A stretch of 64,000 nucleotides of DNA, taken from contig CALXRQ010000004.1 of the NCBI GenBank assembly GCA_944390895.1, positions 8,069 to 72,068 on the forward strand. The letters are read 5' to 3'. Both the position numbers and the translations under genes were made by a program. The notes under the pieces were generated by a model, which saw nothing but the letters and a program-made list of their open reading frames with translations, was not told where the DNA came from and ran no database searches. Origin of the DNA: an uncultured Alphaproteobacteria bacterium (GTDB taxonomy: Bacteria; Pseudomonadota; Alphaproteobacteria; RF32; CAG-239). This document shows positions 9,812 to 42,263 of this stretch, in pieces; the stretch's first letter is position 1, and each line of letters opens with the position of its first letter.

Positions 9812-11959
9812 ATGAGTCTTTTCATGGGAAAACTTTTTTTTGCCGTTTGTTTCTTTTTTTCCGGATACCTTTCCTTTGAGGCGGCCGCGGCCATCCGTTC
9901 GGTTGCCGATGCCAACGCCGCGCTTGAAAGCAGCCGGAATCCCATTGCCGAAAGCGCTGAAATCAACCAAGCCCGGCAACAGCTTCAGAGCATGGGTTCC
10001 GAGGAGATGGAAACATATCTCAAAGAAAGGCTGAAAAAAGTGGTTAAAACCACCTTGGACAAAGGCGACGGTCTCGGCGGCGACGGCGCCATCAACGCGC
10101 AGAAAAGCCTTGAACAAATCGAGAAAGAAAACGAAGCGAAAAAATCCACCTTCGAGCGGATTTACGACAATGCCATGAACAAGCTCATCAGCCCCAAAGA
10201 TCCGCAGCCGACGGCCAAGCTTTATACGCCCGAAGACGCCGCCCGAAGACAGGCCAACCTTGAAGAACAAAAGCGGCGGATGCTGGCAGCCCAGCACGAG
10301 GCTTGGAAAAAAGCCAATATTGACGTTATTGAAGCTGCTCTGCCCCCGGCCGGAGCCAAAACCCTGATTCCGGCGCAGGAACATATTCCTTACCTGTTTT
10401 CGCGAATCGAGCTTACACCCGACGGACTGACCAACATCAGCGACACCATCGTGATTGTCGCCAACGGCGAGAATCTGAAAAAGGGCGTGACCAGAGCTTT
10501 TCCCAAACATGTTCTGACCCGCGAAGGCAAGCGTCAGAAAATTGACTTTCAACTGTTGGGTGTCAACGTTAACGGTCAGGAGATTCCTTATAAAACCGTT
10601 GAAAGAGGAAATTATATTTTCCTTGAGCCCCGAAACGACGACGACCTGCGCCCCGGCGTTTATACCTATCAATTCAACTATCTGATTGACAATCAGATTT
10701 TCAGATATAACGAATTTGACGAATTTTACTGGGACATTACCGGCAGTGTCTGGAATCTGGTCATTGCCCGGGCCGGCGCAGCACTGATTATGCCGCCCAA
10801 CACCAAGCCGCTGGGGCAGACCGCCGTGTCCGGATATTCGGGCTTATGGGATGAAAACGCCGTCATCATCAGCAAAGAGGCCGACAATGTTCTGGGGTTC
10901 GTCACTCCGTATCCGCTGTTTATCGGCCAGGGTATGCAGATTATCGTTTCCATTCCCAAAGGCGCCATTTCCAACCTTACGCTGACCAAACGCTTTCTGC
11001 TGTTCATGAACGAGTTCGGCGACATTGTCTTTTCGGCTCTCGGACTGGCTGCCATCCTGCTGTCTTATTTTCTCTCCTGGCGCTATATCCGCAAAAACAA
11101 AAGCTACAAGGTTTTGAGCGCACACAAAGACGGTCCGATCCTGCGCTACTTGAGGAAAGGACTGGTCGACCGGAAGTCCTTCGGCGCTTTTCTGCTCGAT
11201 TTATACCGCAAAAACATCATTGATATTGAGGAAAACGACGGCAATATTCTGCTGGTGAAAAAAACCGACAACGTCAAGTCGCTTTCAAAATATGAGAAAA
11301 AAGCCGTCAACAACCTGTTTACCGGCAGCGAGGCGGTTCTCAATGTCAACTCCTATTCCCTGCTCAAAATCAAACGTGCCCTGGACAACATTACCAAAGG
11401 CGTCCGCCAGCAGATTAAGCTCATCAGCCTGAAACTTAACATAGGTTATATTCTGTTCAGCGTCGGAATGCTGGTTTTTGCCGAGCTCGGCATTGCGGCT
11501 CTGGCCATCGACACCGCCTATACCGCCGCGTTTATGCTGACCTGTACCGCCGCCATGGCTTTCAACATATTTTTAATCAGAAAAAAATATGCAAAAAAAT
11601 GGCTGGGAATTGCCGTTAAAATACTGGCCGGAATCTTTCTTGCCTTTGAATGGTTTTTGCTGTGTTCCGTGGTTCATCCGGCAACGGCGCTGATCTTTCC
11701 GGCGATTATTTACATCATCATGGAATACAGCAAGCTTTATGCCCAGCGCGGCGGGCTGCTCAGCGCCTCGGTCAATGACGCCAAGGAATATAACGATCTG
11801 CTGGTGCGTAAGGCCGCAGACATCGGTCTGGGGAAAGAGTTTGTCATGAATCAGGCCGCCATTTTTGCCATGGATGCCGAAGAATATTACTCACCCAATA
11901 ACAGCAACAAAAATTATTACAAACTTGACATCATTAACGAACTTATCCAGAAAATATGA
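9812..11959 (+). CDS. DUF2207-like membrane protein
   Basis: Signal peptide; YTYQFNYLIDNQIFRYNEFDEFYWDITGSVWNLVI fits the DUF2207 core as I recall it; several C-terminal TM helices. Confidence 0.55.
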   Translation: MSLFMGKLFFAVCFFFSGYLSFEAAAAIRSVADANAALESSRNPIAESAEINQARQQLQSMGSEEMETYLKERLKKVVKTTLDKGDGLGGDGAINAQKSLEQIEKENEAKKSTFERIYDNAMNKLISPKDPQPTAKLYTPEDAARRQANLEEQKRRMLAAQHEAWKKANIDVIEAALPPAGAKTLIPAQEHIPYLFSRIELTPDGLTNISDTIVIVANGENLKKGVTRAFPKHVLTREGKRQKIDFQLLGVNVNGQEIPYKTVERGNYIFLEPRNDDDLRPGVYTYQFNYLIDNQIFRYNEFDEFYWDITGSVWNLVIARAGAALIMPPNTKPLGQTAVSGYSGLWDENAVIISKEADNVLGFVTPYPLFIGQGMQIIVSIPKGAISNLTLTKRFLLFMNEFGDIVFSALGLAAILLSYFLSWRYIRKNKSYKVLSAHKDGPILRYLRKGLVDRKSFGAFLLDLYRKNIIDIEENDGNILLVKKTDNVKSLSKYEKKAVNNLFTGSEAVLNVNSYSLLKIKRALDNITKGVRQQIKLISLKLNIGYILFSVGMLVFAELGIAALAIDTAYTAAFMLTCTAAMAFNIFLIRKKYAKKWLGIAVKILAGIFLAFEWFLLCSVVHPATALIFPAIIYIIMEYSKLYAQRGGLLSASVNDAKEYNDLLVRKAADIGLGKEFVMNQAAIFAMDAEEYYSPNNSNKNYYKLDIINELIQKI

Positions 11960-37329: not shown

Positions 37330-38202
37330 TTAAATTGATATAAATGCAACCCCAAAGGTTATGACAAAAAGCATAACTACCGCCAAGACCAAATCACGGA
37401 ACAAAGGGCGGTAGGAAACTTTCCGTCCGCGGCCCGCATCTTCTTTAAGACGGAGCATTTCAACCCGCATGGCGCGGAAATATACATAGCTGATTAAAAT
37501 CCACCATAAAATGACGCTGACCGCGGCGGAAGTCCGGGTGACCTCCGTCAGTTGGATCAGTTTTTCCAGAGACCACCAGATAATGGCTATGACATAAGAA
37601 GTCCGATAACTGCGATAAACCAGATATAAAATCGGCACAATGAATCCTAAGCCGAACAAAATGTCCGAATCGCCGCTGAGCCAGGCAAACAACAACGTCA
37701 TCAGCATGACGAACAACGTCAGGTAAAACGCCAGACCGCGATAGGTGCGGCGAAACGGCAGGGTATTATATTCCGCCACCTGTTTTTTCAACTTTTCGTC
37801 CGCAGCCTGAGGCTCGATTTCAGGAGTAAAAAGCTGTTCACCCATATTGACTTCGGGATAAGGCGTGGTAAAAACCGGCGCCGGCGAAACCGGTTTTCCG
37901 GCTTTGATATTTTTCTTCAACGCCTTTACGGCAACTTTTTTGACAGCAATTGCCGCTTTTTTCGTTTTGCCGGCGGCAGACTTCTTAACAACGGGCTTCT
38001 TTGACGCCGGCTCGGACTTCGGAGCTGCCTTCTTTTCCGGCTTTGCCTCAGCAGATACATTTGCTTTATCCGTTAAATCTGAAATAACAGCAGATGAAAG
38101 TTCCTTCTTTTTTGCCGAAACCGGACGTTTAACACTTCTGTTTTTGACAGCCGTTTTCTTTCCTGCCGCTTTTGCCGAAGTTTTGAGTGATTTTTCAGAC
38201 AT
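37330..38202 (-). CDS. membrane protein with a Lys/Ala-rich (histone H1-like) N-terminal region
   Basis: The first ~110 aa are a KKxAxKK-type low-complexity region; the C-terminal half has about 5 TM helices. Confidence 0.5.
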   Translation of the reverse strand: MSEKSLKTSAKAAGKKTAVKNRSVKRPVSAKKKELSSAVISDLTDKANVSAEAKPEKKAAPKSEPASKKPVVKKSAAGKTKKAAIAVKKVAVKALKKNIKAGKPVSPAPVFTTPYPEVNMGEQLFTPEIEPQAADEKLKKQVAEYNTLPFRRTYRGLAFYLTLFVMLMTLLFAWLSGDSDILFGLGFIVPILYLVYRSYRTSYVIAIIWWSLEKLIQLTEVTRTSAAVSVILWWILISYVYFRAMRVEMLRLKEDAGRGRKVSYRPLFRDLVLAVVMLFVITFGVAFISI

Positions 38203-38347: not shown

Positions 38348-38422
38348 GCCGCTGTAGCTCAGTGGTAGAGCACGTCATTGGTAATGACGGGGTCGCAAGT
38401 CCGATTCTTGCCAGCGGCACCA
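38348..38422 (+). tRNA. tRNA-Thr (anticodon GGU), CCA encoded
   Basis: Manual cloverleaf: acceptor GCCGCTG/CAGCGGC, D arm GCTC-AGTGGTA-GAGC, anticodon arm CGTCA-TTGGTAA-TGACG, T arm GCAAG-TCCGATT-CTTGC, then ACCA. Confidence 0.85.
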
Positions 38423-38432
38423 TTTTTGAGAT

Positions 38433-38456
38433 AGCACCTTTCAAGGTGCTTTTTTG
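38433..38456 (+). terminator. intrinsic terminator after the tRNA
   Basis: AGCACC/GGTGCT stem plus a T-run. Confidence 0.65.
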
Positions 38457-38480
38457 TTATGTAAACCAAGGCTTTCCGCC

Positions 38481-38532
38481 AGTCCGATTTTGGTGGTTTT
38501 GGAAAAAGCATTTTTAAATGAATTATCGGACT
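38481..38532. repeat. 52-bp inverted-repeat element, copy 1
   Basis: AGTCCGATTTT...TGAATTATCGGACT. The termini are reverse complements and the interior is AT-rich. Confidence 0.6.
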
Positions 38533-38729
38533 TTTTAAGCAAGCGCCAAGAAAATCAAGCATTTCATTAAATAAAATCCCAGTCCGATAAAATTGTTGAA
38601 AATTTAATTAAAAAATATATTGGGTGTAGATAGAATTTTTCAATAATTATTGCTCGGACAAAAATTTATTGTATTTTATGATTAATCTAAGTATGCTTTA
38701 TTTCAAATTACCATTGTAAGGAGGTTATT

Positions 38730-39122
38730 GTGAGAAAATATACATTACTATTAGTTGGCTTTTTGATGGGGTGCACAATGAGCGTCTTTGCAAATAGCTA
38801 TTTAAATACAGACGACAGAAATTTATCTGTAGCGCAAGCTTATATTGTATTAAAAGGGAATCATAATACAGTAGAAGAAGCAAATAAATTTGCCTCTTTA
38901 GTTAATTTTATGTCAGGGATGAGAACATTTGCTCAATATCATAATATCTTAAAAAACAAAGGAGATAAACAAGATAAGATTGAAGTTTGTTTAGCTGGAA
39001 GAAACTTGTTAACATATCAGAACATAATTTTTAGAGAGTACGAAGAAGGAAAGACAAAAGGAGATGAAACTTTTTCTATAGAATTCTTTAGAGAACTAGA
39101 AAAATGTTTAAATATGGATTAA
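38730..39122 (+). CDS. small secreted protein or lipoprotein, unknown function
   Basis: AAGGAGG 6 nt upstream of GTG 38730. Signal peptide MRKYTLLLVGFLMGCTMSVFA. Confidence 0.6.
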   Translation: MRKYTLLLVGFLMGCTMSVFANSYLNTDDRNLSVAQAYIVLKGNHNTVEEANKFASLVNFMSGMRTFAQYHNILKNKGDKQDKIEVCLAGRNLLTYQNIIFREYEEGKTKGDETFSIEFFRELEKCLNMD

Positions 39123-39176
39123 CCTAATGAACAATATTACGAACCACTTAGTGAACCTAAAAAAAGAAAATAAAAA

Positions 39177-39788
39177 ATGGCAATCAGTGATTTTTCAGAT
39201 ATAATTACAGCCTTTTCAACAATTGCTATGGCTTTAATTGCAGGTTTCGCTTTGCATACATGGCGCAAAGAATTTATCGGAAAGAGAAAAATAGAACTTG
39301 CCTGTCAAATAATGAAAAGCGTATATGATGTGCAAGATGCCATACTATATGCAAGAATTGGACGCATCAACGAACTTGATATTAAAGAGGTGGAACAGTG
39401 GGTACATTCGGAAAAGCAACGTGATCCTGAACACATGGGAATTTTTCCAGAAAGATATTTTGCATGGGTTCCTCATCGTAGATTGGCGGAAAGACAAGAT
39501 AAAATAGAAAAACTGCAAAATTTTATGAATGATGCATGCTTGTATTGGGGATTGGAGTTAATGCAATTAATATATGAATTAACTGGATATACGCTTAAAA
39601 TCAGGACTGCGGCAAAAGACCTGTATTATAGTGATACACATCAAAATCCCACAATATTACAAAATATACTATTTTCCAATAATGCTAATGATGACATTAA
39701 CAAAAGGGTAAATGAAATTGTTGAAGAAATTAAAATAAATTTAGAGCCAATTTATAAGGATCAACACTTTAAATGGAAAAAATTATAA
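39177..39788 (+). CDS. N-terminally membrane-anchored helical protein, unknown function
   Basis: 203 aa; one TM helix (IITAFSTIAMALIAGFAL); the remainder is predicted helical. No family recognised. Confidence 0.55.
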   Translation: MAISDFSDIITAFSTIAMALIAGFALHTWRKEFIGKRKIELACQIMKSVYDVQDAILYARIGRINELDIKEVEQWVHSEKQRDPEHMGIFPERYFAWVPHRRLAERQDKIEKLQNFMNDACLYWGLELMQLIYELTGYTLKIRTAAKDLYYSDTHQNPTILQNILFSNNANDDINKRVNEIVEEIKINLEPIYKDQHFKWKKL

Positions 39789-39885
39789 TAAAATATGCTC
39801 TATATCTTTTATATTTGCCCCATTATTGATTACTCTCAAGTAATTCAATTTTCCTACCTAAGTCGCTGAAATCTTGCGTAAAATT

Positions 39886-39915
39886 AGTCCGATAACTGCA
39901 CAGCAGGCTGCACCA
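39886..39915 (+). repeat. tRNA-3'-end-like 30-mer, copy B
   Basis: AGTCCGATAACTGCACAGCAGGCTGCACCA. Begins a ~145-bp imperfect direct repeat of 38398-38540. Confidence 0.65.
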
Positions 39916-39926
39916 TTTTTGATTAT

Positions 39927-39949
39927 GCACCGTTAAAGGTGCTTTTTTT
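39927..39949 (+). terminator. intrinsic terminator following repeat B
   Basis: GCACC/GGTGC stem plus T7. Confidence 0.6.
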
Positions 39950-39973
39950 GTATATATTCCAAGACTTTCATAA

Positions 39974-40025
39974 AGTCCGATTTTTTACATTTTAAAATTG
40001 GCAATTTTTGATGAATTATCGGACT
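39974..40025. repeat. 52-bp inverted-repeat element, copy 2
   Basis: Same length and same termini as 38481-38532, with a diverged interior. Confidence 0.6.
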
Positions 40026-40029
40026 TTTA

Positions 40030-40671
40030 CTATATCCTTAATATTCCATGCAACATGATATATATTGGCAACATTAGGAAGAAAGATATTGCATAACTCA
40101 AAATATTAGCTCGTAAAATTCCTTTAGATAAAACATCGTTACTATATGTGTTTCGCAAATACTTTTTTGTTATAAATCTCTCGATAAAATATGAGAAAAA
40201 ACAAAAAAAGATATTATAAAAAAGCATAATAAAAATAAAGCCTATCGTAACTACGACAGAGTTTCGAGGAAGATATGCCAATATTCCATATAATGGTCCA
40301 AGTGTTAAATATCCAATGTGATGAGAATCAGAAACGAACATTACAGTATAAAAAGCAAGACATAAAATTATTCCGCCTAAAACCGTTGAAACAAAGTTTG
40401 AAACTGAAACAATTTCAATTATTTTTGCAGTATTTGTTGTTTTAAAATACTTTTTTTTCAAAAATAAAGTTTCACATAATATAATGAATACTAAACAAAT
40501 GAATGTAATTATAGAACTAGATAGTGGATATCCTAACCCTATGATTCCTGAAGTTGCCGCAACAGATTGGATTGTATTTATCCATAGGGGCAATCCTCCA
40601 TTAGCAAATGCTAAAGATGGAAATAAAAAACATGATAGAAATAACAAGCTTATTTTAATGTTTTTTATCAT
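40030..40671 (-). CDS. polytopic membrane protein, unknown function
   Basis: 213 aa; signal-like N-terminus followed by about 6 TM helices; AT-rich codon usage. Confidence 0.5.
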   Translation of the reverse strand: MIKNIKISLLFLSCFLFPSLAFANGGLPLWINTIQSVAATSGIIGLGYPLSSSIITFICLVFIILCETLFLKKKYFKTTNTAKIIEIVSVSNFVSTVLGGIILCLAFYTVMFVSDSHHIGYLTLGPLYGILAYLPRNSVVVTIGFIFIMLFYNIFFCFFSYFIERFITKKYLRNTYSNDVLSKGILRANILSYAISFFLMLPIYIMLHGILRI

Positions 40672-40789
40672 AATATAATATCCTTATTTAAGTACTCGGT
40701 TACATATAGTATCCAGCCATAAAGGTAAAAATATATTAAATAAAACATCTTAGGTTCTGGTTTAATTTTATAAAATCATCATAAAAATT

Positions 40790-40819
40790 AGTCCGATAAT
40801 TGCACAATATCGCGCACCA
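40790..40819 (+). repeat. tRNA-3'-end-like 30-mer, copy C
   Basis: AGTCCGATAATTGCACAATATCGCGCACCA. Confidence 0.6.
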
Positions 40820-40826
40820 TAAAAAA

Positions 40827-40851
40827 AGCCTCCTTAAAGGAGGCTTTTTTT
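40827..40851. terminator. bidirectional intrinsic terminator following repeat C
   Basis: AGCCTCC/GGAGGCT stem with A7 and T7 flanks. Confidence 0.65.
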
Positions 40852-40973
40852 ATGGTTGTCGTTAAAAGAACGGAGTTGCGAAGCAAGTCTGACGGAGCCG
40901 TCTGAAAATTGTCAACCGGCAGAGGACGAGGAGCAAAGCGACGAGGTCTTGAGCGACAGCGATTGATGATAAT

Positions 40974-41246
40974 GTGACAGATGAAAATAAACATCAGTAT
41001 ATGAGTTGTCTGGCCGGAAAAGGCGGAAAGTTGGAGGCAACAATTGGTTGGAGTGCGGGACTGATTAAAGAAGCTAAAGACTTAGCCCAAAAGATTCCAA
41101 ACACTGAGACCAGAAATCGTTATGGCGGAGTTGGCAATATTTTCAAAGATAGCGCTAAGGACATAACCAATAATTGGAAAGGTTTACACTATGGCTTGGA
41201 AAATAAAGGTAAATGTGTCAATTTGCTTGAAAGAAAACTTCCTTAA
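40974..41246 (+). CDS. small soluble protein with a weak serum-amyloid-A-like pattern (possibly a gene remnant)
   Basis: 90-aa ORF with a GTG start and no clear RBS. WSAGLIKEAKD and KDSAKDITNNWKG resemble the SAA blocks WAAEAISDARE and EDSLADQAANEWG. Confidence 0.35.
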   Translation: MTDENKHQYMSCLAGKGGKLEATIGWSAGLIKEAKDLAQKIPNTETRNRYGGVGNIFKDSAKDITNNWKGLHYGLENKGKCVNLLERKLP

Positions 41247-41313
41247 TTGACGATTTTATAAATTTGTGAGAATATCTCTCTCTGTATACTTATAATGCTT
41301 GGGGTATTCTCAC

Positions 41314-41619
41314 ATGAAATCTAAAGTTAAATCTTTATTGTTTTGGGCGTTCTTCTTTTTTCTGTTAATTTGCTTAATGTTTTGGGGGGTATTTTTCTTT
41401 ATAAATACTGGAAATTTCTATTATTTTATGGGACGTCTTGTGGAAATTTCGGGCTACTTATTCATTGCCGCGTATGTTGTTTTTACAATTCTTATCTTTA
41501 CCCATAAATTTCCGGAAAGAATAAAACGATTTGAAAAGTTTAGATATCTGGGGGTAATGGTTTTGTTAATTTTTATTGAAATCTTCGTGATTGTTTCCGC
41601 TCTTCCTGATTTAGATTGA
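41314..41619 (+). CDS. small membrane protein (3-4 TM), unknown function
   Basis: ATG at 41314 (MKSKVKSLLFWAFFFF...); very hydrophobic. Confidence 0.45.
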   Translation: MKSKVKSLLFWAFFFFLLICLMFWGVFFFINTGNFYYFMGRLVEISGYLFIAAYVVFTILIFTHKFPERIKRFEKFRYLGVMVLLIFIEIFVIVSALPDLD

Positions 41620-41677
41620 AGTTTTCTGCACCCACCTCCATTTTTTTTGTTAATTGCTTAAATTCTTCATAGTTTTC

Positions 41678-41707
41678 AGTCCGATAATCGCACAGTAACG
41701 CGCACCA
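41678..41707 (+). repeat. tRNA-3'-end-like 30-mer, copy D
   Basis: AGTCCGATAATCGCACAGTAACGCGCACCA. Confidence 0.6.
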
Positions 41708-41715
41708 TAAAAAAA

Positions 41716-41744
41716 GCACCGCTTGAAACAAGGCGGTGCTTTTT
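41716..41744. terminator. bidirectional intrinsic terminator following repeat D
   Basis: GCACCGC...GCGGTGC stem with A- and T-runs. Also lies 3' of the minus-strand 166-aa gene. Confidence 0.65.
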
Positions 41745-41762
41745 CTACATTAGGGCTTTTCT

Positions 41763-42263
41763 TTAAGATGCCAGAAAGGATTCCACCTTACGCAGATCTT
41801 CCTCGGCTTTAGCCTTTTTTTCAGCTTGGCGAATGGCGTTCCGGCGTTCCCTTTCAGCCTTTTCGGCTTCATCGAGAACTTTCTTAATCGCAGCCTCCTC
41901 CTCGCTAATTTCAGCTATGGTTTTAGCGCCATAGGCCCGCAGCAGTTTTTCCACGGCTTTACTGTGACGGCCAATGTCCAGCAAAGTTCTGGTTTCATAA
42001 TGTGAAAGGTCACAATACTCAGGCGGACTGCTCCAACTTTCATTCACCCAAACCTGAACTCTCGTGTTCGGATCCATACCTTTTTCAAGCAGCATAATCA
42101 ACTTATCGATATCCGCCTTTTCACAAGCCTCTATCAATTCGTCGGTTTCTTTTTTCCGTTGTTCAATTTCTTTTTTGGCTCTGTACTTTTTCCAGAAGCA
42201 AAACAAATACACCAACAGACCACCGGCAAAAAAACTCACGGCAAAATAAATAATTGTTTTCAT
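41763..42263 (-). CDS. membrane-anchored protein with an ankyrin-like segment and a charged coiled-coil tail
   Basis: N-terminal TM helix; ACEKADIDKLIMLLEKGMDPN resembles an ankyrin repeat; the C-terminus is rich in E, K, A and R. Confidence 0.45.
   Translation of the reverse strand: MKTIIYFAVSFFAGGLLVYLFCFWKKYRAKKEIEQRKKETDELIEACEKADIDKLIMLLEKGMDPNTRVQVWVNESWSSPPEYCDLSHYETRTLLDIGRHSKAVEKLLRAYGAKTIAEISEEEAAIKKVLDEAEKAERERRNAIRQAEKKAKAEEDLRKVESFLAS

Follow-up and report, generated by a model that had tools for sequence, protein, structure and literature searches.

A tandem cassette array behind a tRNA-Thr gene in a gut alphaproteobacterium, probably built by large serine recombinases

Introduction

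The layout in which mobile elements inserted by large serine recombinases (LSRs) line up behind a single gene is already known from other bacteria. The closest known systems to the locus described here are the ssrA islands of Dehalococcoides and the SCC cassettes of staphylococci. In the former, dsiB, an LSR gene, overlaps both attL and ssrA, and islands follow it in tandem (McMurdie et al. 2011, PMC3146451). In the case of SCC, mobilization of tandem cassettes lacking a recombinase by the Ccr serine recombinases was established experimentally (PMC11470126). In the tycheposons of Prochlorococcus, 910 of 937 elements use tyrosine recombinases (bioRxiv 10.1101/2020.12.28.424599). In the Listeria A118-family integrase, a distal 8–9-bp zinc-ribbon-domain motif ends the 25-bp attP half-site (Rutherford et al. 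2013, PMC3783163), and in serine integrases this motif is shifted by 5 bp between attP, with its 25-bp half-site, and attB (PMC3783163).

The locus comes from a 64-kb stretch of DNA (the window) of an uncultured gut alphaproteobacterium, in which an array lies 3' of tRNA-Thr in an AT-rich island. The array probably arose by serial site-specific LSR integration at the 3' end of tRNA-Thr(GGU), and its cassettes are stripped-down relatives of LSR-inserted mobile elements. Read at the level of sequence, the related loci, which are metagenome assemblies throughout, document the site geometry, LSRs or their relics at junctions, boundaries at GCACCA, relocation of units without an LSR gene and strain polymorphism.

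Organization of the array

The only tRNA in the window is tRNA-Thr(GGT), at 38348–38422 (ARAGORN and Rfam, 70.9 bits). It is followed by three 30-mers that match the originally quoted letters and coordinates exactly, with repeat-to-repeat spacings of 1488, 904 and 888 bp. G+C content is 30–38% in the island and ~49% in the surroundings. The features are as follows.

38348–38422, + strand: tRNA-Thr(GGU); its last 25 nt (38398–38422, AGTCCGATTCTTGCCAGCGGCACCA) form the putative B-type half-site
38423–38600, + strand: W1 leader (linker), with terminator 38433–38456, 52-bp palindromic double motif 38481–38532 and a third AGTCCGAT at 38581–38588
38730–39788, + strand: W1 cargo, 130-aa and 203-aa proteins, from open reading frames and translations
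39841–39915, + strand: R1, right end of W1, ~45 nt upstream stretch plus 30-mer 39886–39915
39916–40029, + strand: W2 leader, with terminator 39927–39949 and 52-bp double motif 39974–40025
40030–40671, – strand: W2 cargo, a 213-aa multi-pass membrane protein
40745–40819, + strand: R2, right end of W2, conserved upstream stretch plus 30-mer 40790–40819
40820–40990, + strand: opening of basal unit B, bidirectional terminator 40821–40851 plus a degenerate G-element copy
40974–41619, + strand: B cargo, 90-aa (40974–41246) and 106-aa (41299–41619) proteins
41633–41707, + strand: R3, distal array end, conserved upstream stretch plus 30-mer 41678–41707
41708–41745, no strand: bidirectional terminator, shared with the convergent LapA-like gene and conserved in all strains
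41763–42263, – strand: LapA-like gene, convergent to the array

The repeat exceeds 30 nt. About 45 conserved nucleotides lie 5' of each 30-mer, and the repeat extends ~180 nt past the tRNA and past the first 30-mer, an extension that contains the terminator and the 52-bp palindromic pair AGTCCGAT-N36-ATCGGACT. The upstream stretch of R1 is only partly conserved relative to the consensus of 124 R sites. The 8-mer AGTCCGAT has 11 copies in 64 kb against 1.2 expected, a count attained in 0 of 100 shuffles, and nine of the copies fall within 38398–41685. The original list of copies of the 12-mer AGTCCGATAAYT needs two corrections: the sequence at 38581, AGTCCGATAAAA, agrees over a 10-mer only, and an exact copy outside the island, at 37600 within a 290-aa gene, had been missed. 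The predicted terminator after each of the four segments was found, two by a terminator scan (38433–38450 and 39927–39942) and two, bidirectional with an A-tract/hairpin/T-tract structure, by direct reading of the sequence (40821–40851 and 41709–41745). The terminator before the LapA-like gene probably belonged to the tRNA gene originally.

No protein of W1, W2 or B has a Pfam or PADLOC match, in keeping with the earlier description of cargo without recognizable families. The 130-aa protein of W1 (38730–39122) is a putative lipoprotein, its 203-aa protein (39177–39788) has a hydrophobic segment at the N terminus, and the 106-aa protein of B has three hydrophobic segments. The claim that all are secreted or membrane proteins fails for the 90-aa protein of B, in which such segments are absent.

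Basal unit B has no double motif. A GC-rich "G-element" lies behind tRNA-Thr in many relatives, and the window copy was matched to G-elements elsewhere by eye, with no computed alignment. The region 40820–40990 is common to all strains of the species and appears to be a former tRNA-proximal flank that has since been pushed distal. The cargo of B was found in all 10 other strain contigs (L002–L011).

Half-site geometry and crossover

The distance from AGTCCGAT to GCACCA is 11 nt in every tRNA copy (n = 49 and 39) and 16–17 nt in R (n = 151 and 149; 16 in the window 30-mers), the paired counts coming from two independent sets of loci. Across ~240 loci no other spacings were found. The spacing of the 52-bp double motif likewise recurs, in 101 + 140 occurrences. 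As far as can be judged from sequence, the shift between 11 and 16 nt follows the attP/attB rule published for serine integrases; the 30-mers fit the P half-site expected for an LSR, and the tRNA 3' end fits the B half-site. R1 would be a P-type half-site in an attR-type junction. The crossover appears to map to GCACCA, 38417–38422 (tRNA positions 71–76), and the tRNA would therefore remain intact.

The 30-mers were also considered as decayed tRNA ends, a reading that was rejected. Their inability to pair with the acceptor strand, pointed out in the original prediction, is explained together with the additional 5 nt by attP-type half-site geometry rather than by decay.

To the right of GCACCA no zinc-ribbon-type motif is visible; the motif occurs in left half-sites only, the right halves being similar in attP and attB, and the separate 52-bp palindromic pair lies ~60 nt from the site. 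Leaders also abut the GCACCA of tRNA-Leu(TAA), tRNA-Phe and tRNA-Thr(CGT), which lack the 8-mer and have little in common beyond GCACCA.

Large serine recombinases in relatives

The 64-kb window encodes no recombinase, and the original prediction had likewise seen no integrase or excisionase in it; no recombination directionality factor was identified. A recombinase beside similar repeats, which that prediction had proposed looking for, occurs in related genomes at the same site, where an intact LSR gene of 514–548 aa lies directly behind tRNA-Thr on the opposite strand. Its reading frame terminates within the tRNA, and the tail of the protein, WCRWQESDLRPRHYQ, is the reverse translation of the tRNA. 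The 540-aa protein P0207, whose gene adjoins tRNA-Thr in locus L148, exceeds the Pfam cut-offs for Resolvase, Recombinase and Zn_ribbon_recom, and there are ~40 further LSR clusters (488–565 aa, mostly 514–548). P0352 is found in L149 and L150 and P0354 in L151 and L152, with the tRNA itself confirmed in L149. As in the window, aroA is retained on one side in L149 and L150, and META and SerRS on the other in L149–L152.

At GCACCA junctions, 18 genome loci and 20 metagenome loci contain LSR relics, which range from <60 to ~365 aa. One of them is in L003, which resembles the window's species because its contig has the same LapA-like protein and basal units. The flanks of L004 are 98–99% identical. 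Aligned in register, the W1 leader matches both the 3' coding end of the L149 LSR gene, which is intact, and the relic in L003. In the leaders, two 8-mers correspond to the LSR codons for KSPI(I/F) and LSDC, and the regions with reversed AGTCCGATAAYT copies align with the 3' end of the integrase gene. W1, W2 and B are best read as units that have lost the LSR gene, all three retaining their R end.

Mobility and strain variation

Cassettes W1 and W2 both recur elsewhere. W1 (38417–39918) is 97.5% identical to positions 2064–3564 of L111, where it sits after an R in an array behind tRNA-Leu(TAA); both proteins are 100% identical, and the homology begins at 38417 and stops at 39918. The W2 block 39906–40851 is 97.3% identical to 1502–2449 of L127, with a 213-aa protein that is 100% identical, and there it is the first cassette behind tRNA-Thr. 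The checks proposed in the original prediction show that cassette homologues in other genomes carry the same flanking repeats, that homology breaks at GCACCA, and that cassette content differs between strains of the same species: at least five cassette sets occupy the locus, all differing on the tRNA-proximal side. The 30-mer occurs in other genomes in the same array type (behind tRNA-Thr(GGT) in 48 of 118 8-kb loci), and the repeats are restricted to such arrays rather than spread genome-wide. Strain differences and recurring cassettes bear out the proposal that att-flanked cassettes without a recombinase accreted serially at a tRNA attB. Circular excision junctions, also suggested as a sign of mobility, were searched for and none was found.

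Of 16 cassette pairs, 11 have leaders that are at least 86% identical, and in nine of these the 40-nt stretches left of GCACCA are unrelated. In the other five pairs the leader is just 66–77% identical despite cargo that is at least 93% identical, and identity begins at the right arm of the 52-bp site. A simple one-site model does not predict these five pairs.

Proposed mechanism

An autonomous element would consist of an opposite-strand LSR gene abutting the tRNA, then cargo, then an R with a P-type half-site. The tRNA would provide the B-type half-site, with the zinc-ribbon-domain motif AGTCCGAT (in the T-loop) 11 nt from GCACCA, and R would provide the P-type half-site, with the identical motif at 16 nt. 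The newest element would insert beside the tRNA, and earlier ones would move distally. W1 and W2 would have kept a ~110–180-nt leader, which aligns with the LSR 3' end and whose terminator could serve the tRNA or the upstream unit. Units lacking an LSR gene would be excised and integrated in trans by the intact LSR of another element. If attP and attB have equivalent right-hand half-sites, the tRNA junction may be reusable after every insertion. Canonical serine integrases do not recombine attL, and repeated use of the tRNA junction therefore requires an assumption.

Alternative explanations

The units could instead be dead remnants of independent, formerly autonomous LSR elements. In that case nothing would be mobile now, and the diversity would go back to earlier integrations and deletions and to homologous recombination between strains. 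Relics of many lengths at the junctions (38 against three intact genes, in loci selected by the R pattern alone), the lack of a recombinase in the window and the negative search for circular junctions all fit such an origin. This reading is nonetheless judged unlikely. W1, already without an LSR gene, occurs with its leader in two unrelated settings at 97.5% identity, as the first cassette behind tRNA-Thr and as the second behind tRNA-Leu. Conservation is perfect in R and in the leader's two 8-mers while the remaining leader drifts to ~70–80% identity, and the exact stretches common to flanking repeats are short, making them poor substrates for homologous exchange.

Serial LSR integration is also favored over three explanations that do not involve an LSR. 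It is very improbable that a tyrosine recombinase acting in trans built the array with AGTCCGAT as its arm-type sites, even though three 8-mer copies in the leader are reminiscent of such sites and a candidate exists: L042 and L137 have a 193-aa, catalytic-domain-only gene of the Phage_integrase family, 250–280 nt before a true 3' fragment of tRNA-Thr that a leader follows. Elsewhere this family occurs without R sites (beside a serine-recombinase island at tRNA-Gln, beside tRNA-Asp, beside prs, or ~6 kb from tRNA-Thr inside a defense island), its junctions are of the tRNA-identical rather than the 30-mer type, and the 5-bp spacing rule and the junction-crossing LSR frame favor a serine enzyme. 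Generic elements unrelated to mobility (REP-like repeats, uptake sequences, or tRNA-like signals for RNA processing or termination) would account for a terminator after every repeat and for repeats ending, like a tRNA, in CCA. Such an origin is more improbable still, given that nine of 11 8-mer copies lie in the island, that 30-mers elsewhere sit in the same array type, that the repeats match no Rfam family and the 30-mers do not pair with an acceptor strand, and that homology between genomes breaks at the repeats. Least credible of all is that metagenome assembly over short repeats created the variable cassette orders as artefacts. All relatives are metagenome-assembled genomes or metagenome contigs, and several contigs terminate at repeats; against this, >240 loci show the architecture and spacing, and they stem from many independent assemblies and assemblers; exact repeat stretches do not reach the length of typical final k-mers; and the repeats break contigs rather than join them.

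Comparison with known systems

In the A118-family integrase the attB motif is 5 bp nearer the crossover, as AGTCCGAT is here (16 versus 11 nt), while the present motif is confined to left half-sites and accompanied by a separate 52-bp pair. Tycheposons are also cargo-bearing integrative elements at tRNA genes; reintegration drives older ones into the island, and degenerated elements are marked by partial tRNAs and integrase fragments. Many of them have replication modules, and their repeats are true partial tRNAs, whereas the repeats here appear to be attP-type half-sites with shifted spacing. Integron arrays likewise gather numerous small cassettes at one site, most of them poor in promoters and with diverse accessory functions, and have the recombinase outside the cassettes. 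The loose likeness to such an array suggested by the original prediction does not hold: there is no adjacent IntI tyrosine recombinase (no intI) and there are no attC hairpins, the enzyme family differs, and cassettes lie in both orientations, each opening with a terminator.

Like the system proposed here, SCC and SCCmec composite islands use LSRs (CcrAB, CcrC) that integrate at the 3' end of a conserved gene and form tandem arrays with att repeats between units, and ccr-less cassettes, many with defense genes, are excised in trans by a neighbor's Ccr (PMC11470126). The SCC target is the protein gene rlmH rather than a tRNA, the recombinase reading frame does not extend into it, and the cassettes are tens of kilobases. 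Trans-mobilization is experimental in SCC and only inferred here.

The ssrA islands of Dehalococcoides are likewise tandem, 3' of a tRNA-like gene and bounded by repeats of its 3' end. The opposite-strand dsiB gene sits at the gene-proximal edge, overlaps attL and reaches a stop codon only within the target gene or the adjacent island; a conserved repeat-adjacent motif has no match to the target gene, and some units without an integration module were proposed to be cis-mobilizable (PMC3146451). The present target is tRNA-Thr, and also tRNA-Leu, tRNA-Phe and tRNA-Thr(CGT) via GCACCA, with the crossover apparently at the extreme 3' end rather than in the T-loop. A second, small serine recombinase like DsiA was not seen here. 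The units, in gut Alphaproteobacteria, are miniaturized to 0.9–1.5 kb, and they differ further in a conserved leader that contains the 52-bp double motif and aligns to the LSR 3' end.

The Array Behind tRNA-Thr

The array begins at the 3' end of tRNA-Thr(GGT), the sole tRNA gene in the window, and is made of three units called W1, W2, and B (basal), numbered outward from the tRNA. Each unit closes at its right end with a repeat (R1–R3), in which a 30-mer is preceded by ~45 conserved nt.

Features of the array in the window

38348–38422: tRNA-Thr(GGT)
38481–38532: palindromic pair AGTCCGAT-N36-ATCGGACT, 52 bp, in the first leader
38581: third copy of the 8-mer AGTCCGAT in the first leader
39886: 30-mer at the right end of W1 (cargo: 130-aa and 203-aa genes)
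39974–40025: 52-bp palindromic pair behind the first 30-mer
40790: 30-mer at the right end of W2 (cargo: 213-aa gene on the opposite strand)
40974–41619: 90-aa and 106-aa genes, the cargo of B
41678: 30-mer at the right end of B

The original prediction had described a tRNA gene followed by three 30-mers in an AT-rich island, with terminators after all four sites, and this description is correct, including its positions. The G+C content is 30–38% over 38.4–42 kb versus ~49% elsewhere in the window, and a terminator follows the tRNA end and each 30-mer; two of the four were found by a scan, and two are bidirectional A-tract/hairpin/T-tract structures read directly off the sequence. The 30-mer had been taken as the repeat unit. 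The 30-mers are real, but the repeat is larger, extending over the conserved stretch upstream and over ~180 nt of similarity past the tRNA and past the first 30-mer. This latter stretch, to the right of GCACCA at the start of a unit, is called the leader here, and it contains the terminator and the 52-bp palindromic pair.

The 8-mer AGTCCGAT occurs 11 times in the 64-kb window versus 1.2 expected copies, and 9 of the 11 fall within 38398–41685. The 30-mers of other genomes are likewise grouped into arrays that follow tRNA genes. This concentration in the island argues against uptake sequences and against genome-wide REP-like repeats, the latter being the finding by which the original prediction would have fallen. 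The ORFs of W1, W2, and B, flanked by the tRNA end and R1–R3, match no recombinase family. Searches of Pfam and PADLOC placed none of the five cassette proteins in a family, and Rfam detected only the tRNA in the island and six related loci.

The T-loop of the tRNA-Thr (38400–38406) reads TCCGATT, with C at position 55, and is conserved across species; to our knowledge U (pseudouridine) is nearly universal at this position. The loop coincides with the 8-mer that is predicted to bind the integrase, and the T-stem shows compensatory changes (GCAAG/CTTGC, GTAAG/CTTAC, and GTGAG/CTCAC). Upstream of the tRNA, a gene for a 290-aa membrane protein contains, at 37600–37613, 14 nt that match the start of the 30-mer (AGTCCGATAACTGC). 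The match is kept with one change in other strains and may be a chance match or a pseudo-site.

A Large Serine Recombinase That Reads into the tRNA

At four related loci from other genomes or metagenomes (L003, L064, L101, and L112), the sequence to the right of GCACCA is the end of a minus-strand ORF and not a terminator. This ORF encodes a zinc-ribbon CxxC motif as well as a coiled coil, reads ...KTPETDKW|C over the junction, and matches a full large serine recombinase (LSR, or serine integrase) with a blastp E value of 4e-12 and Pfam Zn_ribbon_recom with E = 6e-8. Judged by its sequence, it is the C-terminal half of an LSR. All 86 proteins found in a search with the fragment are truncated, internally deleted, or fused. 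An exhaustive HMMER search yielded an intact protein of 540 aa, P0207, which passes the Pfam thresholds for Resolvase, Recombinase, and Zn_ribbon_recom, and a further search gave ~40 clusters of intact length (488–565 aa, mostly 514–548 aa) with 65–85% identity.

On contig L148, the P0207 gene immediately follows tRNA-Thr and is encoded on the opposite strand. Its last 15 codons (WCRWQESDLRPRHYQ) are the tRNA reverse-translated, and its stop codon falls in the anticodon arm. Intact LSRs occupy the same tRNA-Thr site in a different species with core genes ~77% identical, namely P0352 (L149/L150) and P0354 (L151/L152); for these contigs the tRNA itself was confirmed in L149. The search for a recombinase beside similar repeats that the original prediction proposed has produced one, abutting tRNA-Thr. 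In L149/L150 the whole island is present between aroA and META/SerRS, matching the window, while L151/L152 keep the META/SerRS side alone. Cargo of ~7 kb, with GmrSD-like and AAA_15/21 genes among it, follows the LSR in L149, and the element closes with a typical R that is followed by a leader and older units.

Decayed genes are common at the same position. With tblastn, LSR relics of <60 to ~365 aa were found at the junctions of 18 genome loci and 20 metagenome loci among those listed, and three intact LSR genes are present among 120 listed metagenome loci that were chosen by the R pattern alone. In the window, tblastn recovers only the tRNA-encoded tail of the LSR.

Several further observations concern this enzyme group. 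In L149, the 8-mer is found again (9972–9979, minus strand) just before the ribosome-binding site of the intact LSR gene, 21 nt ahead of its start codon, a position that suggests possible binding of the LSR to its own leader. In another alphaproteobacterium (L133–L136, e.g., L133 12997–14648), a distantly related serine recombinase of 536 aa with 31% identity likewise ends within tRNA-Gln(TTG) on the opposite strand, and enzymes of this group seem generally to read into their target tRNA. The reverse complement of L148 carries at ~120–310, ~185 nt upstream of tRNA-Thr, a second copy of the promoter-proximal flank and first 20 nt of the tRNA (ATTATTATGCCGCTGTAGCTCAGTGGTA), with a near-copy of the anticodon arm further on; this looks like a disrupted copy of the 5' half of the tRNA.

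Proposed Half-Sites and the Spacing of the Motif

Leaders without an LSR align in register with the 3' coding end of the LSR, interrupted by two indels (12 and 9 nt) at the present position of the terminator. The two 8-mers of the leader correspond to the LSR codons LSDC and KSPI(I/F), and these motifs are perfectly conserved in leaders that otherwise drift.

In tRNA copies (n = 49 and 39), AGTCCGAT lies 11 nt from GCACCA, whereas the gap in R copies (n = 151 and 149) measures 16 or 17 nt. No other spacing is seen in two independent locus sets of 200 and 188 sites; the pattern used to find loci fixes 16 nt and so guarantees at least one such R per locus, with extra R copies and tRNA copies left free. 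The shift is seen in left half-sites only, and no motif of the zinc-ribbon type was seen to the right of GCACCA.

In the work of Rutherford et al. (PMC3783163), the attP half-site contacted by a serine integrase spans 25 bp, of which the distal 9 bp bind the zinc ribbon domain, and in attB the motif lies 5 bp nearer the crossover than in attP. By this 5-bp rule the 30-mer would be a P half-site and the tRNA 3' end, with its motif in the T-loop, a B half-site, so that tRNA plus leader would be attL-type and R plus the next unit attR-type. Identity as a P half-site would also account for the 30-mers being 5 nt longer than the tRNA end and unable to pair with the acceptor strand. At the sequence level, attP and attB look alike in their right half-sites. 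Since attL is not a substrate of canonical serine integrases, a second use of the tRNA junction would require these right halves to be equivalent. No recombination directionality factor was identified.

Strain Variation and Relocated Cassettes

A LapA-like protein encoded just distal to the array is identical on many metagenome contigs. Contig L004 (GCA_902473735.1) is 98–99% identical to the window in both flanks and is therefore assigned to the same species. Unit B and R3 are common to all contigs with the LapA-like gene; the variation is on the tRNA side, where the window has W1 and W2. A Bro-N-like gene (272/285 aa) takes the place of W1 and W2 in L002, L004, and L011, at least 5 kb of extra DNA with a type IIG restriction-modification gene is found in L003, and L005/L006 and L007 have yet other genes. 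The extra DNA of L003 terminates in a 30-mer, and from GCACCA on L003 is 99% identical to the post-tRNA sequence of L011.

The window cassettes themselves are found elsewhere. The segment 38417–39918, from the tRNA GCACCA through the leader and W1 to R1, is 97.5% identical to L111 2064–3564, where it is the second unit of a tRNA-Leu(TAA) array and is preceded by R, not by a tRNA. W2 (39906–40851) recurs in L127 at 97.3% identity, there as the first unit behind tRNA-Thr. Polymorphism between strains at the tRNA and cassette homologues with the same flanking repeats, both of which the original prediction had put forward as checks, are thus observed.

The boundaries of the mobile unit were examined in 16 cassette pairs from different loci with cargo at least 93% identical. 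The leader is at least 86% identical in 11 of them, and in 9 of these 11 the 40 nt to the left of GCACCA are unrelated. Because the leader travels with the cargo and the left flanks are unrelated, the unit is GCACCA / leader–cargo–R / GCACCA; homology breakpoints fall at GCACCA, a resolution coarser than the dinucleotide. The GCACCA ends of tRNA-Leu(TAA), tRNA-Phe(GAA), and tRNA-Thr(CGT) are also directly abutted by leaders, and these tRNAs have ordinary T-loops and little besides GCACCA in common with tRNA-Thr(GGT). A metagenome scan for the predicted circular junction of W1 (left part of R1 joined to the W1 leader) gave no match and is uninformative. The 90-aa and 106-aa genes of B occur twice in tandem, as diverged copies, in UMGS1686 (L069 1785–3763), and the two may work together.

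Proposed Mechanism and Alternative Readings

In the mechanism proposed here, an element circle in which R is joined to the leader (attP) would recombine with the tRNA end inside GCACCA, so that the tRNA sequence would be retained and the terminator of the element gained. Later elements would enter at the same point and displace older ones. The LSR genes would decay by deletion, with the last ~110–180 nt and the R end kept, and units with a leader and an R end could remain substrates for an intact LSR located elsewhere in the cell or in the population. Mobility in trans of units that lack an LSR is suggested by the relocation of W1, the conservation of the motifs, and the precedent of ccr-less SCC elements (PMC11470126). 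Serial accretion of att-flanked, recombinase-less units at a tRNA, as originally read from the sequence, is supported and made specific, with unit boundaries at GCACCA and no recombinase ORFs in the units.

An alternative within a serine-integrase scheme is a crossover at the center of the 52-bp pair. The pair has the size of a full attP (26 + 26) yet is ~60 nt from GCACCA, and in the remaining 5 of the 16 cassette pairs the leader is only 66–77% identical and near-identity of the cargo begins at the right arm of the pair. But leaders abut the GCACCA of four tRNAs, and the leader goes with the cargo in 11 of 16 pairs, so the main crossover is not placed there; the pair may instead serve as an operator or as an additional point of exchange. 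A more ambitious scheme, which we regard as speculative and rather unlikely, is an integron-like pool of LSR-less mini-cassettes run by a serine integrase, in which a few intact LSRs shuttle well over 100 cargo families (120 clusters among ORFs of at least 150 aa) among the GCACCA ends of several tRNA genes, with the 52-bp pair as a second active site that swaps cargo behind a resident leader in a natural two-site cassette exchange.

Other enzymes fit less well. A tyrosine integrase was sought by phmmer with lambda Int, XerC, and P4 Int in six-frame ORFs of 118 listed loci, with one partial match, in L042, which led to a family of 193-aa tyrosine recombinases; neither the queries nor this family gave anything in the window. 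That family was rejected as the array enzyme because five of its contexts showed no consistent link to R sites. The reverse complement of the 30-mer starts TGGTGCGC, which we took as a possible likeness to Xer/dif sites; the spacing is unfit, the likeness presumably stems from the tRNA end, and this reading was rejected. The supporting enzyme for single-strand transposition of the HUH/IS200 type was not found. The loose likeness to a cassette array does not extend to an integron: there is no intI and no attC, the junctions consist of R, GCACCA, and a terminator, and W2 is on the opposite strand of what should be co-oriented cassettes. The gene upstream of the tRNA, considered as an integron-style integrase, encodes a Lys/Ala-rich membrane protein that is unconserved in other species, and the terminators do not qualify as attC-like hairpins because their hairpin sequences are unconserved. 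An Islander-type island is disfavored because the window 30-mers differ from the tRNA end between the 8-mer and GCACCA; true tRNA-identical 3' fragments exist in other loci, with none in the window.

The 193–194-aa tyrosine recombinases are a large family (P0001–P0120) in AT-rich islands of the same bacteria, with a catalytic domain only (Pfam Phage_integrase E = 1.6e-18); examples are L042 7534–7998 (minus), L137 10001–10582, and L133–L147. Two of the genes lie 250–280 nt upstream of a true tRNA-Thr 3' fragment within an array, and others are at island edges by prs, by tRNA-Asp, and in a serine-recombinase island at tRNA-Gln.

Spread, Cargo, and an Associated GC-Rich Element

The pattern AGTCCGATAA..GC..A.......GCACCA, applied to one genome per species, gave at least 118 stretches, and a metagenome scan for the R pattern gave at least 120 loci. 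Among the listed stretches, nearly all are from uncultured gut or rumen Alphaproteobacteria, including 'Azospirillum sp. 51_20', Ca. Scatocola, and MAGs from humans, ruminants, chicken, and termite. A tRNA-Thr(GGT) is upstream and co-oriented in 48 of the 118 listed 8-kb loci, and some listed loci have at least five units. An IMG/VR scan with the 30-mer had no match, and there is thus no sign of a phage carrier.

Cargo ORFs of at least 150 aa in the listed loci number 188 and form 120 clusters. They include Fic, NERD, GNAT, Bro-N, HNH, APH, a C5-methylase with NgoFVII, N6-methylases, KAP NTPase, AbiEii-like AAA_21, DUF4143 ATPase, ankyrin, and MFS proteins, with no integrase among 30 representatives. 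Restriction-modification systems and numerous small proteins of unknown function are also part of the cargo. Large cargo genes encode a 1085-aa protein without a Pfam family (L076 730–3984), a 590-aa protein with six DUF4379 zinc-finger repeats (L090 1174–2943), and a 723-aa KAP NTPase (L046 2145–4313); this large-gene cargo resembles a defense island.

At many loci (L017 5225–5410, L113 2743–2952, L064 1378–1580, and ~29 others), the tRNA-Thr terminator is separated from the first leader by a GC-rich stretch of ~155–215 nt, the G-element, of which the window has a degenerate copy at 40852–40990. It ends in a 17–19-nt copy of the tRNA-Thr 3' end and is predicted to fold into several hairpins, with compensatory changes in 13 of 30 predicted pairs across nine sequences. 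It belongs to no Rfam family and is not called a tmRNA (ARAGORN found no tmRNA in the 118 listed loci). It may represent a structured RNA that has not been described, or a mini-element of a different type.

Significance and Relation to Known Systems

The system would explain how accessory genes gather and are exchanged at one tRNA in widespread uncultured gut and rumen Alphaproteobacteria. The ~390 natural sites obey the 5-bp attP/attB spacing rule, which was itself derived from one crystal structure. The LSR family has a short, well-defined target in the tRNA 3' end and natural minimal cassettes of ~1 kb, and it could interest builders of integrase tools. For annotation, tRNA-end-like repeats of this kind are to be read as serine-integrase half-sites and not as decayed tRNA fragments. 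No account of such a system in gut Alphaproteobacteria was found in the literature, although absence there is no proof, and the clade appears to be a new host for such arrays.

Among known systems, the ssrA islands of Dehalococcoides come closest; they are tandem islands behind a tRNA-like gene with a conserved motif beside the repeat that does not match ssrA (PMC3146451). There, the 3' end of the LSR gene dsiB invariably overlaps attL, the stop codon falls only in ssrA or the next island, and some units without an integration module were proposed to be cis-mobilizable (PMC3146451). SCC composite islands provide a functional precedent for trans-mobilized, defense-rich cassettes without a recombinase, experimental there (PMC11470126) and proposed here. 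Tycheposons have the tRNA-island logic in common, with mostly tyrosine recombinases (bioRxiv 10.1101/2020.12.28.424599). What sets the present arrays apart from these known systems, besides the host clade, is a target at the very 3' terminus of tRNA-Thr and of further tRNAs that end in GCACCA, units miniaturized to ~1 kb, and a leader that aligns with the 3' end of the LSR and bears the 52-bp double motif.
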